64,000 nt of DNA from Rhizodiscina lignyota (taxonomy: Eukaryota): contig ML978124.1 in assembly GCA_010015805.1 (NCBI GenBank), positions 124,001-188,000 of the forward strand, read 5' to 3'. How positions within the stretch are numbered: position 1 is the first letter of the stretch; each line of letters begins with the position of its first letter. The notes under the pieces were generated by a model. That model ran no database searches. It saw only the letters and a program-made list of their open reading frames with translations, and was not told the origin of the DNA. Below, piece after piece: positions 26,230-63,703 of this stretch. Both the position numbers and the translations under genes were made by a program.

Positions 26230-28035
<1,806 letters not shown>

Positions 28036-28211
28036 AGTCGTGAGACATGGATATTAATCTGTCGTCGGCTTTCGGACGACCATACTTCTCATGGCGGCAT
28101 CGCATTTGCTCCAACTGCCGCATCGATAGTTCCTCATCTCATGACTTTCCATCCTTTCACCACTTCCTCGAGGATCCAGAGCTTTGCAGTGCACGACATC
28201 ATAGAATGTCG

Positions 28212-29066
28212 TTAGTCCGAAACAGCATCATCGTCATCCGATAAGTAAAAGTCCACTTCTCCATCCAAAGAGTTCTCGGTACGAGTGTCATCGTCTTCAC
28301 CTAGGGCAAGCGTTTTGGCATTTGCCCTCTGTGGCGCTCCAATCTTGACCACCTTCTTGATCCCACCCTGCGCCCTCTCGTACCTGTATGAGATTTTCAC
28401 CACATTGTAGCTCACAGCAAACACTTGCTCAGTAGCGACGGTTTCCGAGACGTCAACGCCGGCCTTTCTTGTTGTTTTAGGTGCTATATTCGGATTACCG
28501 AAAGCCATTGGTGCGCCTGCGATTGCAGTGACTGGAACAGTGACGTTAATCCCGACACTTCTGGCTTTGGTCATGCCTCGCGTCCACTTCGTGCCGGTGG
28601 TGGTGAGAAAGCCTGTTACAAAGTACGCGTGGTTCTTTCCGCTCCTTGCAAACAGCTTCTCCACATCCGCGGAATAGTGATCATTGCTCATCAACGTGTC
28701 GAAAACGTCGGCGGGATCGTGCCCAAGCACGTATCTTTTGACCTCGTCGCTTTCGAGTTCAACTCGGAGTTCCGTTTCTCGGCCAAGGTCCAGGCCAAAT
28801 AGATCGCTGAGGCCAACAGAAATTGAGTTTTCTCTTGCGGTTGTGAGGATACTATGTGCATCTGTGCTGATGATTGGTGCTGGAAGAAGCGTTGGAATGA
28901 TGTCTTCTGGATTGTGCTTTGGTATCAGACTGCCGGAGGTTGGAGCTAGAGGCGCAAACTGCTCGGCTGGACGTAGCTTATGAGAAACAATGCGGCCGAG
29001 CAAAGTAAGTATAGTATCGGAGGGAAGCGGTTCAGGGAGTAGGAAAAACCGGCGAGGTGAAGTCAT
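28212..29066 (-). CDS. Gasdermin-like (RCD-1/HET-Q1-type) pore-forming protein, 284 aa, intronless
   Basis: Size and ordered motifs typical of fungal gasdermins: FFLLP..LGRIV..P, a beta-rich core, AYFVTG, a Gly/Ala-rich hairpin, VFAVSY..V, then LAL-G and a 29-aa acidic tail. Adjacent to a protease gene. True start is ATG 29066 (the track extends from a GTG). Confidence 0.8.
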   Translation of the reverse strand: MTSPRRFFLLPEPLPSDTILTLLGRIVSHKLRPAEQFAPLAPTSGSLIPKHNPEDIIPTLLPAPIISTDAHSILTTARENSISVGLSDLFGLDLGRETELRVELESDEVKRYVLGHDPADVFDTLMSNDHYSADVEKLFARSGKNHAYFVTGFLTTTGTKWTRGMTKARSVGINVTVPVTAIAGAPMAFGNPNIAPKTTRKAGVDVSETVATEQVFAVSYNVVKISYRYERAQGGIKKVVKIGAPQRANAKTLALGEDDDTRTENSLDGEVDFYLSDDDDAVSD

Positions 29067-29681
29067 TTGCGTGGGCAAACAATCAAAGACGCAATATCCT
29101 ACGGCGGGCTTAAAGTGGCTCAAGAATGACTGAAGCTTGCGGATCGGCAATCTTTGCACGGGCAAGGCACCTATTCTTTGAGGAATGAATGTCAAGAACA
29201 ACGTCGGGAAGTTTCCAATTGCACGATGGTACTGCGATATGTATGCCCTTCTCTCGAGGTCTAAATAGGAGCTTCTCACCGAGGTAAGTACGCACCGATG
29301 TCTGAGCCACAACGCCACTTGAAGAGTTCAAAGCTAGGCTCAGCCGCTCAATTTAGCTTGGCCGGCAGGCAGCAGGCTCCAGCGCCCCTATCAGAACGGC
29401 GACAACCGCACTTTACCGATAGCAAGCATGCTTACGACCTGTGGAAATGGGATTTCTAAAGCCACTCTATACTCGTATCTTCTGTCGGAGCACGAATGAT
29501 CAATATGAGTTGATTGAGGAACGAAGCTCTCAAGGAGAAGTGCACGGTTATACATAATACAAGAGCGCTAAGACGCACTGATCACTTCCTGGCATCTTCA
29601 TATCGAGCTTGATAGCCTTGATTGCTCTCCACACTTTCTGTTTGACGTAGGGGCTCTCTATCTATCAACGTTCCGCTCACC

Positions 29682-32600
29682 ATGTCCTCGGCAAGTCGTA
29701 ACACAATCCAGATAATTTCGACGTCTGCCGACAAGAGCCATCAAGCGACCGAAAACTCTAACACGACCCGACGCTGTTGGTATGTGGATGTCGTTCCACC
29801 AAGTCCCGCAAAGCCTCACACTGTTCTCCTGTCCGATCCATTCAATGAAGAACAAAACTCCGAATGCTCATGGTACCTCAACAAGTATGTGCAGCACGAA
29901 CCCTTCTCCGAAAGGAGAGCAAAAGAAGCCTTGCAACAATTGAAAACATATGGTACTCGACTCATTCAAGACCTCGAACTTCGTGACGTTGTTGAAAAAC
30001 TCTCCAAGTCCGGTGAACCCATAACAATATCTGTTGCCAACAACGGTCCTTCCGAAGACAACATATATATTGCCTGTACTGGGAAATTCTCGAAGACCCC
30101 GAAGTATGGGAAGTCAATGGGCTGGAGTTGATCATCGTTCGAGACTCACAATCCGATGTGCCCGCAACAAACTCTCCGCAACTGGACCTGGTTGGACATC
30201 AAATCAATATCCTCCTCGTTCTGGCACGTGATTTGCGCAGAGAAGTCTCATTACGAGAAGAGATCAATCCACATTTGGCCTTTGGCGTCTTGTTCAGCCT
30301 GAAGAATGAACTTCGGAAGCGAAATACACCCATCCAGCTAAATATAAACATTGTTCGCCCGGGTAGCTTCGAAGCATTGGAATCACACCTCAAAGAGACC
30401 GAAAACCAACATGGAAAAGGATTTTTTCACATTGTGCATTTTGATTTACACGGAATCATATCTACAGATTCCCAAGCAAACCTTTTGTTCAATTCTTCGT
30501 CTCCAAGCGATTTCGTGACCCAACCGGAGCCTGTCGAGAAAGTTGCAGGAATTCTTCATCAGTTTGGGATCACCTCGGTGGTTCTAAATGCCTGCGACTC
30601 AGCCAACACAAGCCGGGGAGTCGAAGCAAATGCTTCAGATCAATTCATCAACCAAGGAGTGATGAACGTCCTTGCCATCTCGTTCAAAATAACTTCCACT
30701 GCTGCCGAAGTCTTTCTTCATTCATTCTATCACTCTCTCATCCTGGGTGGCCATGGATTTTACTCAGCAGCACAGCGAGGACGACGTGCTCTCCGTGCCG
30801 ACATTTGCCGGGATGCACGATTCAACCTCAAAAGAGATCTCAACGACAGCTTCGTACCAGTTACGTACACTTCCGGAAATGAATCAAAGTTCCAAATTCC
30901 AAATTCGATCACAGCGAGCGAAACCGAAGATAGTTCGATACGGACAAAGACAAAGCAGATCTGGACATCAGCGCTCGAAAGCCAGCTCCTCGCCGAAAAG
31001 CTTATTGGACGAGAGTTGGACCTGCTTCGACTTGAAAAGAAACTAATTGCGGAAAAGTGCCTACATCTCTCTGGCCGAGCTGGTGTTGGCAAGACCTCCC
31101 TCCTTATTCATGCCATTGAAATATGGATGGGTACTTCATTTTTTGAAGTTTTTGTTGGGATTACTTTTCCTCCATTGGACTTTAACAACTATAAAAGCCC
31201 AATATTCGCTTCATTTGATGACTTCCTACAAGCATATATCAACGAATTGCCACTGCAATCTGCAGACAAAGAAGAGCTTTCAAAAGAATCACCACCAATT
31301 TCGGAACCGGCACCGGTATACTTTACACGCAGGATTCACCATCTTCTCTCTACTGTTAACTCGCTTCTGGTTTTTGATAGCCTTCATACACTCTACGTCG
31401 GAATGAAAATCAGCGATGAGATTGACAAGCTGGTGTCAGATATAAATCTGTTCATGGCAACACTTTTGACATTCTCTCGAGAAGTTGCGAACGAGAAGAA
31501 ATTATACATTATTTTCTCCTCTCGATGTAACAAGGTTCTTCATCCAGAGTTGGTGAAAGGAGTCAAATGGGACTTCTCAGATGGGCAATTTGATGTCGAG
31601 AGTCTGCCATTATCGGCATCAATGCAGCTGGCTCGGTCAGCCATTTCCAACTTAGCTCCCAAATCTCCTGAGCTCGCAGATGGAGATATGGCAGAGCTTG
31701 AACTTCTTCTTGGTCTCTTGGACGGAAACCCATCTGCTATCCTGCATGTTATGCAAGGGAAATCCGCAACCCAAAGTTGGGCCGAATATCGTCGCCAAGT
31801 CCATCTTGGAATTCTTCCCCCTCTTGGTGAAGACAAAAATGAACCTGTCTATGGGGAAATCGGTCGTTTTGTTGGTCGTTTGTCCGAAGAAGTAATTTCC
31901 GGACTGATCTACTACAGTCTGTTCTGGAAAGAGGGCATGCCATTGACATCAACTATAGCAGAACTCCATCTACTTGGACTCATGTCTTTTACCGAAACAA
32001 CAGTACATTCGCTTAACTTTACAGCTGATAGGGGATTTATCGATTGGAAGCGAGCAGGGGACGATGCCGAAATACCTTGGATCCACCCGCTGATGACGCT
32101 TTGCGCCAGGTCCTACGCACAAGAATACGCCCAGAACCAAACCAATGTGGCCACCTCACCCACAGAAGTTATTTCTTCTGCTGTGCTTGCTGCCTTGGGG
32201 CAATCATACTCAATTTTGATACCAGAAGACAAAATAGTCGCCATCAACAAAGTCCCGCAGTTATTCCTTACTTCGGTTGAAAAGCATAGCATGAAGCGGT
32301 TCATTAGCGTTTACCTCAAAGGCTACAATTACAATGATGCCTTTTCAAACTGGGCGAAGGAATCTGCGAATTTAGAGACTTGTATTGCCATCTGCTTGCG
32401 AAATCCGCCTTCGTCCATCGATCAGCTGCCGCTTGATTTCTTTGGTCAATGCGTTTCTGGTATCAGAATGACTGGCTCTCCCGCTGAAATTAGCCTGTTC
32501 AGTAAACTCTTCGTCGAATTCTTCCAGCTTGTCATCTCCATCAACAAAGGCCTTGCATTCGGCCCTGATGACGATAGTCAGCGGTTCTCTTTGGTCATGT

Positions 32601-34316
32601 CAACGTGTCTCGCCGCCATGTATAACAGCGAGCTTCTGCAGAAGGAAAAGTTCAGCGAATACAGTCAACTGGCTGTTGATATCATCAGGGCGTCGGAGAA
32701 AGAGTTTGGCCCGTACCAAAACCATCGCGTTCAATACATGAAAGGCCTTGCTCTGAGGTACCGGGGAATGAGCCTAATCACAGAGGGCAAAGCAGAAGCT
32801 GCCAACGAATATTTCCAGGAGATGCTAGACTTGGAAGGCGGCCTGCTCCAGGAACCAGAAAAGTTGGCCTTTGGTTTCACGAAAGATCAAGTTGACGATG
32901 TCATTCAGAACCTGGGTCTGACGGGTGAAGAAGCAGCCACTAAAGAAGAGCAATTGAAGAACATGGCTTCCGGCTCGTACTGGACCACTTACATGAAGAG
33001 CCGACGCAACATCATGCGGGTCACGACCTTGCCAGCGATGGCGGAGAAAGAGGGAGACTCAGTTCTTTCTTCAAGGGCATTTCGGGGAATCCTTGCAAAA
33101 GCCAGTGCAGGAATGAAACAGGTGCTTGAGCAGGGAGAGGCCATGGGCATGCAGGGCATCGAGCAAGACACAAGATGGTGGCCAGAAGGGGTTGACTTGA
33201 ATTACTACGTTCGAAGACAGGCCGATACCACAGAGAAACTTCGAGCGTTCGAGGACGCAGTGAACTCTGGAGACTCCGCAAGAGTTCAAAAGCTGCAAAG
33301 CGAAATGTTTATGCAGTCTTTAAAGACGCTCGATATGGAAGGTGCTTATTCAATTCTGGCTGAAATGCACAAGTCACTGGGCACGAATGCTTCTGACAAC
33401 GCATCAATATTACCATTGAGCATGGGCAGAGATCTTATGGAAGTTGGTCAACATGCTCAAGGGAGATAAAGGAGAAGTTACGGGAGAGCAAAACCAAGAG
33501 ATCGCACAAAGCGCACTTTCAAACGCGATCGATATTGCGACAACCCGAGGCGACGATCCAAATGCAATTGAAGCTCTTAAGATTTGGAAGGAACTCCCAA
33601 GCACTAGAATGTCGGGGATACAATTTACAACTCGAGAAGTAGAGAGGGTACAGAAGTTCATGAAACTGCAACTTGAAGGGGCTTCGAGTATGCAAGTCTC
33701 GCCGAGCCGTCGAGCAGATATCCAGCTGAAACATGCCCAACTCATGATGAGCTACGAACAAGCCCTGTTTAGTGGCAATGTAGATGAGACAAGGGACTGT
33801 CTGAATGGTCTGGAAGAGTTCATTCAATTGCCTGAAACTGGTCATTATGGCGCTCTATACGATGATGAATGGTTTCACAATGCTCGTGGACGCCTGGAAA
33901 GCCTCGATCAATTTGCAGAGGCATCGATAAAGTGGAACGAGCATATGTCAGAAAACAATTTCCAGGCTGCTCTCGACATCATTTCTGAATTTGAGAAAGG
34001 GCTTGATCCGGCCATCGCAATGGACGCTAGGCTTGTTCGTTCAGAGGTCTTGGGTGAAATGGAGCTAACGGCGGTCAAGAATTGGCTTTCTATGACCCTT
34101 CAACAGCTGCCTGTCAACCCACATAAGGCTGGATATCGAAAAACTTCTGAAGATCTGGAAACCATTTCTAATTACTTGCACCAATCAGACAGAATTGCAA
34201 GTACCGAAAAGGGACGAGAACTCATAGACACTGTTGCTTCGAAATTAGCTGTGGTGAGCTTGCTGAATGACATGACTCCTGAGGAACCCGAGCCTCGAAG
34301 ATTTGTCCTAATGTAG
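29682..34316 (+). pseudogene. CHAT (caspase-like) protease + NB-ARC-like P-loop NTPase + helical/TPR-like NLR, ~1543 aa when reconstructed; two frameshifts
   Basis: LSDPF..WYL N-terminus, YWEILEDP, catalytic HFDLHG (His 30449) and VVLNAC (Cys 30593), Walker A GRAGVGKT (31073-31096), Walker B LLVFD, LDGNPSAI, WIHPL, TPR-like helices. Frame breaks at 30063-30070 and ~33440. Confidence 0.85.
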
Positions 34317-34566
34317 ACAGAATGCATTGCCGGTTTCTGTGGCGTAGAATGTCGAGTCAGCCGCAAGGAAGCGAAGCTGAGCTAGTCAAGCTTGTATATA
34401 GAGGCTGGTGTGCATACCTTTAGGAACGAGAAGTGCATTCAATCCCATTAGTGGAGATCGCAAGCTTGAGAATGAGATCCTTTCGTCATTGCAGGTACTG
34501 ACGCGATGCCATTCGACAGCATGATATATATTATAGCCAAGATCGATGGATGACCCCTCGAGGCTC

Positions 34567-60902: not shown

Positions 60903-61828
60903 GATGTTTTGACTTTTGACATTTCTCGAACTGTGGAGGGACTCAGCGAGTATTTAAATGGGGAATCCTGCTAGGCATCCACTGAGCTGAGACCAACGTG
61001 GCTGGGTGGTGACAAAAAAGTTGACCTGTTGCTACTCTTCAGGGAGTCGGGCCTTTAAGTGCGCTCACCCGAATGAAGAGGAAGGACATCGATCAAAGGC
61101 GGTATAATCGTAATAAACATTGCCTAAAGTATATCATGCTAAGCTTTCAGCAATGCCCTAGATTATACCGAAGAGCGAAACTGTTTTGGTCTACTAAGCG
61201 CACCGTGTCAGCGTCCATCGGGGCCAGCTATTTTGTCACACGAACTAGCCAGAGATTGAGCAAGAACGTTGATTGGTTCCTGCGAAGACATATCACGTGA
61301 GTATGCCAAATGTTGCGCTACGCCATATTTGTATTAGTCCCGATATCTCTCCAAGTTCGAATCTCACCAAGCACCCTTCACCTGGCTTCCATCTGAACTG
61401 AATCGCCCAATGACCCTGTCAAGACATCATTGCTTGCAGTTGCATACATGCCCTCAACCAGTACCACAATACCAGGCGATGCTAACTAATATAAGTTCGG
61501 ATAGCTCTTGAGCGGTCTCGAGACCCGCAGCGGAAAAATAGGCCACGGAGAAAATTTCATTTGTCCTCCGGCGGAGAATGTTCGACACAATTGGCTCCGG
61601 TTGATTTCCTCTTCGACGGTCTTGCATTGGTTCACGGCTATTTGCTGCTGTCTAACACTGCCAGGATTAATCGAGATGTGGGATATCATGGTCAGGTACC
61701 GGTTGCAGGTAACATTCCTGGTAATTGGGATACCTCCCGAGGTAGAGGTCCGCTTTTATGTCTCCCAACTCCCGTTCCACATCTGTCGACATCTGTCTGT
61801 GGCTCTCCGATAGTACCCCACCCTCGTA

Positions 61829-63703
61829 ATGATTTCTCGAATGTTTCTAAGGGCACTTTGCGTGTTGCTATACGCCAATGGAGTCGTTAGTGATAACTCA
61901 GCGGGCCATCCGCATCACAAGCCCACTCAGGCCTCTTCAAGCTTTTCGTATAGCACATTTACTTATGCGCCGATGACTTCGAACCGATATGCTACACCAT
62001 TGAAATCGCCACTTGCTATTCCAACGCCATGGGCGCCGGAGTTTAGCAAGGTATCATCGTTGCTAGATGCCCACATCACTTACACGACGTATTCATTAGC
62101 TTCGGAGGCTACTACACGTAATGATGGTCAATATGGTCAAAGCGCGTATGCGGCCTTTTGGGCTAGTCAGAATTGGACATATACAGATAGCCCGCCGTTT
62201 ACGACGACTGTTTCCCCAACGCCAGTACCTCGCAGCGAACTTGTCTTCCCGCCACCGCTTCCCGTTGAACCAGTCGACAAGAATGAGACAAATGGATTTA
62301 CTTTACCGTCCAACTTCGTCTGGGGTGTTGCGAGCAGCGCTTGGCAAATCGAAGGTGGGCTTCAGTTTGATGGAAGAGGTCCGTCTGTCGAAGACGGCAT
62401 CGGCACGAACCCGGGTGAGTGATCTCGAGGAAACATGAATACCCAGAGCTACACTAACCTTTTGCGCAACTCAGGGGCCAATGACTCAAATGTAGACGCG
62501 ATGTTCTATTACACTTACAAGCAGGACATAGAACGTCTAGCTGAAATCGGCATTCCATATCTGTGTTTCTCCATCCCATGGACTCGTATAGTCCCATTTG
62601 GAGTTAAGGGCTCTCCCATCAATACTCGGGCGCTGGATCATTACGATGATCTCGTTAATGAAGCTATCGCTCATGGCATCACTCCGATCATTACCATATT
62701 GCATTATGATCTTCCAGTTTCAGTCCCTTATAGCGATCCGAATTTCAGCGATCACTATCTGTATTACGCCAAGCAGATCATGACACGCTACGGAGATCGT
62801 GTTCCGTATTGGGTCTCCATCAATGAACCAAATTTGCAGCCCGTAGACAATTCGCTGACGAACATCCTGGTTGCGCATGCCGATCTGTATGATTGGTACA
62901 AGAACGAGCTCGGCGGAACCGGCCAGATCACTATGAAATTCGCCAACAATCTTGCGATCCCACTTGATGCCAACAATCCAGAAGATATCGCGGCATCATT
63001 ACGGTATCAGGACTTCAGCCTTGGCATCATGAATAATCCCTTGTTCCTGGGCGCGCAGATTCCAGATTCCGTTCTAAAGACACCAGGCATCCAGATCGAT
63101 CCAATCTCAAAGGTCAATCTTTCTCATATTCACGGCAAGATCGACTTCTTCAGCTTCGATCCATACAGCTCTCAATATGTGAGCGCGCCTCCGGGGGGCG
63201 TTGAAGCTTGTGCATCAAACTCCAGCAACCCGCTTTGGCCCACATGCGTTGTGACAACCAACGATGCGGCAAATGGATGGCTCATCGGAGACGCCAGCTC
63301 CGTAGGTTACAGCTTCATCGCGTCTCAATATCGACGGGCCCAGTTCAACTATGTCTGGAATACGTTCAAGCCCTCTGGAATATTGGTGGCCGAATTTGGA
63401 TTTCCAACAGAAGGAGACCAGTACAAGGCGCTTGATGCGCAGCGATACGACCTGGAGCGCACGGTATACTATCAGGACTTCTTGACTGAAATGCTAAGGG
63501 CTATACATGAGGATGGCGTCAATGTCATTGGTACGCTGGCTTGGGCTTTCATTGAGACCAATGAGTTTGGGACATTTGACAGCCACTACGGATTGCAGAC
63601 TGTCAATCATACCACATTTGAGCGAACATATAAAAGAAGTGCCTTTGATTATGTAGATTTCTTCCACCAGCACGCTGAGAAGTCTGCGTCGGGCTATGCC
63701 TAA
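61829..63703 (+). CDS. Secreted glycoside hydrolase family 1 beta-glucosidase with a Ser/Thr/Pro-rich N-terminal extension
   Basis: FVWGVASSAWQIEGG, FSIPWTRI.P, acid/base INEP, nucleophile AEFG. Intron 62415-62474. Confidence 0.94.

Follow-up and report, generated by a model that had tools for sequence, protein, structure and literature searches.

A gasdermin-like gene paired head to head with a frameshifted, probably inactivated CHAT-NLR protease gene in the fungus Rhizodiscina lignyota

Fungal gasdermin-protease clusters have been proposed as the fungal counterpart of inflammasome-driven pyroptosis. Here we describe such a gene pair in a stretch of 64,000 nucleotides (nt) of the Rhizodiscina lignyota genome (contig ML978124.1 of assembly GCA_010015805.1, positions 124,001 to 188,000 of the forward strand), which is hereafter called the window and numbered from its first letter. 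The pair consists of a gasdermin-like gene and a divergently oriented partner gene, whose product combines a caspase-like CHAT protease domain, a nucleotide-binding oligomerisation domain (NOD) and a long helical tail, as a NOD-like receptor (NLR) with a protease effector. We consider it likely that the two genes form a regulated-cell-death cluster similar to het-Q1/het-Q2, in which the partner gene carries a frameshift and is probably a recent null allele. The locus adds an NLR-type member to the fungal gasdermin/CHAT-protease clusters already described in the literature and is not a new system. What is new here is the frameshift in the partner gene, which is masked by a false intron in the public gene model.

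An initial annotation of the window, made from the sequence alone, had proposed this head-to-head arrangement, and its positions were found to be correct. The gasdermin-like gene is a single-exon open reading frame (ORF) of 284 amino acids on the minus strand (28212..29066), identified by its ATG, its homologues and its fold, and the partner gene begins at the plus-strand ATG 29682. The two start codons diverge across 615 bp, well within the 10 kb that was used as the limit for adjacency.

Twenty-one homologues of the 284-residue protein were collected, with 30-47% identity and a query coverage of 58-99%. The family profile recovered 1020 relatives at E ≤ 1e-3 from the representative library (429 at 1e-10 and 106 at 1e-30), and the ORF is therefore a real gene and not a chance frame. 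Aligned end to end with its homologues, it keeps every invariant alignment column and looks intact. The AlphaFold2 (AF2) model, built on 22 sequences, reached a predicted local distance difference test score (pLDDT) of 69.5 and a predicted template modelling score (pTM) of 0.70. When this model was compared to the PDB with Foldseek, Neurospora RCD-1 accounted for all three matches with E ≤ 0.001 (the best being 8jyz_A, E 5.3e-6), and the first 16 among the matches listed were gasdermins only, from fungi, animals, Trichoplax and bacteria. Re-alignment with VIA gave a Z of 10.3 to the RCD-1 pore 8jyz_A (root mean square deviation 4.0, 189 aligned of 234 residues). The crystal structures of RCD-1 scored 9.4 and 9.3, the pores of bacterial gasdermins 8.2-8.3 and animal gasdermins 5-6.4. 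In this ranking gasdermins occupied positions 1 to 19, and the first other protein was perfringolysin O (rank 20, Z 5.1). A profile of 133 family sequences matched RCD-1-1 (E 9.8e-5) and RCD-1-2 (E 0.0049), which were its only significant matches in the PDB. The more direct searches were negative: Pfam and NCBIfam scans of the 284-residue protein found no family, a single-sequence search of the PDB gave nothing meaningful (prestin, E 0.035), and the 22-sequence profile gave 0 matches there. The structural comparisons indicate that the modelled protein has the N-terminal pore-forming fold of gasdermins, and the gasdermin-like identity that the initial annotation had assigned to it is borne out by the fold comparison and by the family profile.

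The pore-forming domain is predicted to span about residues 1-245, with the last beta-strand at 235-245. It is followed by a conserved linker, PxRAxA...LA[L/F]G (residues 245-256; 28299-28334), and by an acidic C-terminal tail of 29 residues (3.2 kDa), which lies below pLDDT 50 in the model. By analogy with HET-Q1, activation is expected to occur by a cut in the linker, at residues ~246-256 near LA[L/F]G.

The partner gene can be read in frame 0 to about 30071, in frame 2 to about 33340-33469 and again in frame 0 to 34316. The corresponding plus-strand frames comprise 149 codons (ATG 29682 to 30131), 1150 codons from stop to stop (30017..33469) and 298 codons (33420..34316). A deposited R. lignyota model of a CHAT-domain protein of 1498 amino acids (P0023) is 99% identical over 95% of the partner query, and the partner is therefore also a real gene and not a chance frame. 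The initial annotation had spoken of a "repaired" protease, an apt wording for a gene that cannot be read in one frame. The first segment (29682..30071, plus strand), delimited by alignment to the homologues P0024 and P0025 and to the metagenome loci L005 and L001, carries the sequence ECxWYLxxY, a conserved feature of CHAT-NLRs from both fungi and bacteria.

The CHAT domain lies in frame 2 (30065..30961) and starts with a W-E motif (30065-30091). The His-Cys dyad that had been pointed out is present in HFDLHG (30437-30454) and VVLNACDS (30578-30601). Pfam CHAT (PF12770) matches with E 4.3e-9 and 36.7 bits against a cut-off of 24, over profile positions 125-272 of 289 only. In the 30-sequence alignment of the region H128, D130, H132 and G133 are invariant and N178-A179-C180 nearly so, and the AF2 model built on these 30 sequences has a pLDDT of 72.9 and a pTM of 0.78. 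The best Foldseek match of this model is the SAVED-CHAT structure 8tl0 (E 3.2e-7), followed by the CHAT anti-sigma factor DdvA and the TPR-CHAT protein Csx29, and then by caspases, metacaspases and MALT1. The model and the alignment indicate that the partner carries a caspase-like CHAT fold with a His/Cys dyad.

The CHAT domain is followed by the NOD (31020..32100), with Walker A GRAGVGKTS (31073-31099), a putative Walker B of the hhhhD type, LLVFDSL (31364-31384), a GxP-like GNPSA (31724-31738) and an MHD-like WIHPL (32078-32092); Walker A, GNPSA and WIHPL are located where they had been reported. The GxxGxGK[TS] pattern is present in 46 of the 50 fungal homologues. Among the homologues, P0025 passes the Pfam NACHT cut-off (27.9 vs 26.7) and P0024 those of NPHP3_N (29.8 vs 24.8) and AAA_22, and the language-model feature matches of the NOD in the atlas (0.96-0.98) are mostly NB-ARC clusters. 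Judging from these motifs and similarities, the partner NTPase is an NB-ARC-like STAND P-loop NTPase, placed between the CHAT effector and a tail of ~700 residues. The first part of this helical tail (32100..33341, frame 2) is 30-33% identical over ~310 residues to P0226, P0229 and P0232, and the last part (33430..34316, frame 0), which ends with the stop codon 34314-34316, was recognised by BLASTP to P0229 (E 2e-8). One homologue of the partner, P0208 of Geoglossum umbratile (1939 amino acids), matches the protein-kinase Pfam families PF00069 and PF17667 in addition to CHAT.

Judging from its sequence, the partner gene in the sequenced strain is FRAMESHIFTED. Frame 0 reads ...EDNIY up to the run CATATATATT (30062..30071, plus strand), frame 2 continues with HIYCLYWEILEDP, and both can be aligned to homologues up to the point where they meet. 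The site is a dinucleotide run, and such runs are prone to slippage and are a classic context for insertions and deletions. In the deposited model P0023, ...ISVANN is joined to DPEVWEV by the excision of 50 nt (30046..30095, GTCCTT...GAAG). The excised segment carries the conserved motif I-x-x-L-x-W-E-x-L-E (pattern [IVM][HQ]xLxWExL), whose W and E are invariant in all 30 aligned relatives, intron-less bacterial genes included. The motif is found in 48 of the 50 fungal homologues, of which one has a variant form and 47 match the strict pattern, and the other two are N-terminally truncated models. The metagenome loci L005 and L001 cross the frameshift site in one frame, and frame 0 is still homologous to the relatives inside the supposed intron. 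The splice signals of the segment are poor (donor GTCCTT, acceptor AAG), and no CTRAY branch site was seen on inspection. We read the 50-nt "intron" as an annotation artefact that probably bridges a frameshift. As deposited, P0023 is devoid of 16-17 residues, among them the invariant W-E motif.

A read-derived contig with 157x word depth is identical to the assembly over 28000-34500, with 0 differences and 0 gaps, and the shift is therefore present in the reads. Coding is interrupted after the N-terminal segment and ahead of the W-E motif. Translation from ATG 29682 ends at 30131 and the first ATG in the long frame 2 is at 30662, beyond the catalytic Cys; therefore, no active protease would be made without a bypass. 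Most likely the protease is not made in the sequenced strain, where the module is probably inactive, and the partner allele is most likely a recent null that arose by recent inactivation. The operative "inflammasome" that the initial annotation had pictured would hence probably not operate in this strain, the protease gene being frameshifted 5' of its catalytic residues. After the shift there is no stop in 1150 + 298 codons (1448 codons), and the catalytic and NTPase motifs are all kept.

A second change of frame, from frame 2 to frame 0, takes place at 33342..33469, and may be either an intron of 88 nt or a second frameshift. The intron of the deposited model (33342-33429) has acceptable signals: a GTGCTT donor, CTGAC 33 nt before the acceptor, and a CAG acceptor. 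The frame-2 homology to P0226, P0229 and P0232 ends exactly at LDME (33340), and frame 0 resumes at LVNML. The distance between these two points is 31 residues in the homologues but 5 in the spliced model, and a read-through with a shift near 33420 would have ~34. Within the 88-nt segment BLAST detected no significant similarity. Pairwise BLASTP of the partner's C-terminal pieces against P0024 gave nothing, and the similarities reported here come from closer homologues. A second frameshift, in the 33420-33469 overlap, appears slightly more likely than an intron; read-through is favoured because of the length comparison only.

The pairing of the two genes is conserved elsewhere, in support of the initial annotation. 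Among the nine metagenome loci with a gasdermin homologue, three (L001, L005 and L006) extend more than 800 nt upstream, and all three carry the N-terminus of a partner on the opposite strand (E 7e-53, 2e-20 and 5e-4 across the three); the remaining six have less than 450 nt upstream, too short to judge. Three pairs of gasdermin and CHAT-NLR homologues occur on contigs of the same size (9,975, 78,745 and 1,530,580 nt, the last from Dactylonectria estremocensis), and on the 9,975-nt contig no more than a few kb can therefore separate the two genes. Among full-length homologues, the one nearest to the partner is P0229 of Cryomyces minteri (30% identity, 640 bits), whose N-terminus is identical to the start of TKA76811.1 and TKA81489.1. 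These two proteins are annotated as "CHAT / P-loop_NTPase" in Dataset S2 of Clavé et al. (2022; PMC8851545), and in Dataset S1 they are paired with the gasdermins TKA76810.1 and TKA81490.1, respectively. C. minteri has two nearly identical CHAT/P-loop_NTPase-gasdermin pairs, which may reflect duplication of the locus or of a genome region.

In the same survey, 353 of 1,884 fungal gasdermins were located within 10 kb of a CHAT gene, and a pathway from a CHAT-NLR to a gasdermin was drawn as a model in its Figure 6 (PMC8851545). The architecture is thus not new. Rhizodiscina appears in Dataset S3 only, with four gasdermins counted, and its name is missing from S1 and S2. The experimental case is the TPR-CHAT protein Q2L-6 of Podospora, which processes the neighbouring gasdermin Q1-6 (PMC8851545). 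According to a 2025 review, some of the proteins controlling gasdermins are NLRs with S8 or CHAT domains, and the TPR-CHAT experiment is the only one that it cites in the part available (PMC12881547); a 2026 Science Advances paper, also seen in part, concerns HET-Q1 and Runella and not a CHAT-NLR. In agreement with the initial annotation, no functional work on a fungal CHAT-NLR together with a gasdermin came to light in the literature accessible to us, Q2L-6 being the sole fungal CHAT protease there whose action on a gasdermin was tested.

What is observed here are the folds and domains, the conservation of the adjacency and the frameshift at the DNA level, whereas we infer sensing, oligomerisation, the cleavage site, killing and the loss of function. 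The short C-terminal tail presumably holds the gasdermin inactive. In intact versions of the pair, following the mechanism proposed in the literature, the helical tail of the partner would sense a signal and the NTPase would oligomerise, which would switch on the CHAT domain. The protease could then cut the gasdermin in the linker after the last beta-strand (residues ~246-256), and the freed N-terminal domain would form membrane pores and cause cell death. In the sequenced strain this chain would be broken by the frameshift in the (AT) run 5' of both catalytic residues, and possibly by a second one 3.3 kb downstream.

Several results weigh against this interpretation. The gasdermin model is moderately confident, with pLDDT below 50 at residues 70-97, 167-202 and 260-284, its Foldseek template modelling scores (TM-scores) are low (0.2-0.5), and Pfam Gasdermin families match 0 of the 133 family members. 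The initial annotation had named RCD-1, HET-Q1 and bacterial gasdermins as structures for comparison; RCD-1 and the bacterial gasdermins were matched, whereas the 133-sequence profile gave no significant match to HET-Q1 (9uv9, E 1.3). The cleavage site proposed above is a guess from conservation. Of the two profiles named for the partner, CHAT scores over its cut-off but NB-ARC stays under it (15.7-16.2 bits, cut-off 23.5). The "TPR-like helices" were not confirmed: Pfam scans of the ~700-residue tail and of its homologues found no TPR or other repeat family, and the one indication is a language-model match to TPR clusters of the atlas at the level of a lead (0.85-0.89). Furthermore, both frame changes are introns in the deposited model, and the public DNA run behind the 157x contig may be the assembly's own source and not independent of it. 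Finally, long open frames with all motifs kept are unusual for a dead gene, and could reflect a very recent mutation, an artefact of the strain or a bypass.

If the frameshift were an error of sequencing, assembly or culture, the natural gene would be intact. The slippage-prone dinucleotide run, the full preservation of the downstream frames and motifs and the possible origin of the assembly from the sole DNA run found all speak for this explanation, but the 157x read contig carries the same sequence with no difference or gap over 6.5 kb, and, should the second frame change be an insertion or deletion as well, two errors would be required; we regard an error as unlikely. The deposited model could also be right, with real introns of 50 and 88 nt, a functional CHAT-NLR of 1498 amino acids and a live module. 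A public model with exactly these splices does exist, both segments have GT...AG ends, the second with a branch-like CTGAC and a CAG acceptor, and the motifs downstream are all intact. However, the 50-nt splice deletes a motif that is invariant in 30/30 relatives and present in 48/50 fungal homologues, the loci L005 and L001 run through the site in a single frame, frame 0 retains its homology within the supposed intron, and the donor and acceptor are poor, with no branch site seen. On this evidence a live, spliced module is quite improbable.

The frame change might instead be functional. Slippage at the (AT) run, during replication, transcription or translation, could act as a reversible or bypassed switch that holds a lethal sensor-protease off or at trace amounts, with the remainder of the 4.6-kb gene under selection, or, in a milder form, the locus could be a polymorphic allorecognition (het) locus with a null allele beside an armed gasdermin; this is a speculation to which we give little credence. 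A purposeful bypass, in which slippage during transcription or a ribosomal frameshift at the A/T run would supply a dangerous protease at a very low dose, is extremely improbable. Indirect evidence for it comes from the long intact frames past the shift and from the location of the shift within a repetitive A/T tract, but no frameshift-stimulating signal was seen (no RNA fold of the region was run), the 48 motif-bearing homologues are single-frame in their listed protein sequences, and fungal NLRs are not known to offer a precedent for such a bypass. The two genes might also be adjacent without any functional link, the gasdermin being activated by another protease or another route, such as an allelic interaction of the RCD-1 type. 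No protease partner is needed by RCD-1, the best structural match, in line with the title of entry 8jyz. The complex prediction for the CHAT region and the gasdermin, run without the curated alignments, gave no verdict (score 0.00, mark 0.34). A neighbouring protease is lacking for 20% of fungal gasdermins (PMC8851545). Nevertheless, the head-to-head pair recurs in 3/3 assessable metagenome loci and in Cryomyces minteri, and gasdermin clades track the type of protease (PMC8851545), which makes an unlinked pair very improbable.

The genes that surround the gasdermin/CHAT-NLR pair are unremarkable (P450, copper ATPase, sulfatase, SUR7, GH1 and aldo-keto reductase), and no repeat structure was found around the locus. 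The 615-bp intergenic region (29067..29681) is presumably a shared promoter. Within it, a segment of about 35 nt (29481-29519) is covered by extra short contigs at a word depth of 320-500x, its flanks being at 157x, and a 31.9-kb contig terminates there whose sequence beyond this point is unlike that of the window. The high depth and the divergent contig end indicate that the segment is repeated elsewhere in the genome; no second copy is present within the 64-kb window. The GH1 glycosidase gene (61814-63703) consists of two ORFs in the same frame parted by one stop (62420-62422), presumably within a stop-containing intron.

With its frameshifted protease gene, the cluster described here adds one further example to a family of ~50 fungal members with clear bacterial relatives, among NLR-type CHAT partners of gasdermins that are catalogued in the literature available. 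Because the public model hides the frameshift by means of a false intron, with the loss of an invariant motif, "intact" NLR proteases can be overcounted in surveys based on deposited models. Experiments would better start from an orthologous pair that is intact, for example that of Cryomyces minteri, than from this allele, and the analysis yields, as by-products, a gene-model correction and a pointer to such pairs.

Among known systems, RCD-1 of Neurospora crassa (8jyx, 8jyy, 8jyz) is both the best structural match and the only significant PDB profile match of the window gasdermin, although identity is low (16% by VIA, 11-15% by Foldseek). RCD-1 is activated by the interaction of two allelic variants, without a neighbouring protease. 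The partner has its own relatives in bacteria, where operons of a gasdermin and a protease are also known (Johnson et al., 2022). Its alignment with the bacterial CHAT-NB-ARC-TPR protein P0026 (from a metagenome-assembled genome of Fibromonadaceae) extends over residues 60-457 (BLASTP E 4e-29) and takes in the N-terminal segment, CHAT domain and P-loop, and the W-E, H-G, N-A-C and GNP(S/L)A motifs are common to the bacterial relatives and the window partner. The bacterial relatives carry canonical Pfam TPRs, whereas the tail of the window partner has no Pfam family. PADLOC gasdermin models gave 0 matches in 98 same-strand flank ORFs at the bacterial loci (of 204, the 106 on the opposite strand being unscanned), and the hidden Markov models of the fungal gasdermins gave 0 matches in 2633 ORFs at these loci. 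Directly downstream of the CHAT gene, on the same strand, a conserved ORF of ~150-170 amino acids was observed in 20 of 78 bacterial loci (among L010-L087; for example L018:8653-9162, L055:9148-9657 and L059:8556-9068). It had no Pfam, NCBIfam or PDB-profile match, and it could be a substrate or effector of the bacterial CHAT proteases.

Within fungi, hetB of Aspergillus fumigatus encodes a CHAT protein of 1,327 amino acids that acts in heterokaryon incompatibility and cell death (Auxier et al., 2024; PMC11138114). By its description it resembles the window partner as a large CHAT protein of fungal cell death, and its alternate allele encodes a short protein only; it differs in that its alleles are idiomorphs and that no link to a gasdermin is shown in the part of the article available. 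The CHAT-type clusters of Clavé et al. are closer, with a gasdermin gene adjoining a multidomain CHAT gene, a short gasdermin tail and proteolytic activation proposed, but in the window pair the protease gene is frameshifted. The domain order also differs from that of Q2L-6, in which TPRs precede a C-terminal CHAT protease and there is no NTPase, whereas the window partner consists of N-terminal segment, CHAT, NOD and helical tail. HET-Q2 is a subtilisin (S8) and the window partner a CHAT protease, and HET-Q1 and HET-Q2 come from idiomorphic alleles, not from neighbouring genes. HET-Q1 is cut after the hydrophobic pair L237-F238, which precedes glycines, with the loss of a C-terminal piece of ~5 kDa (PMC8851545). 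The window gasdermin is similar in this respect, with its conserved LA[L/F]G followed by the acidic tail of 29 residues.

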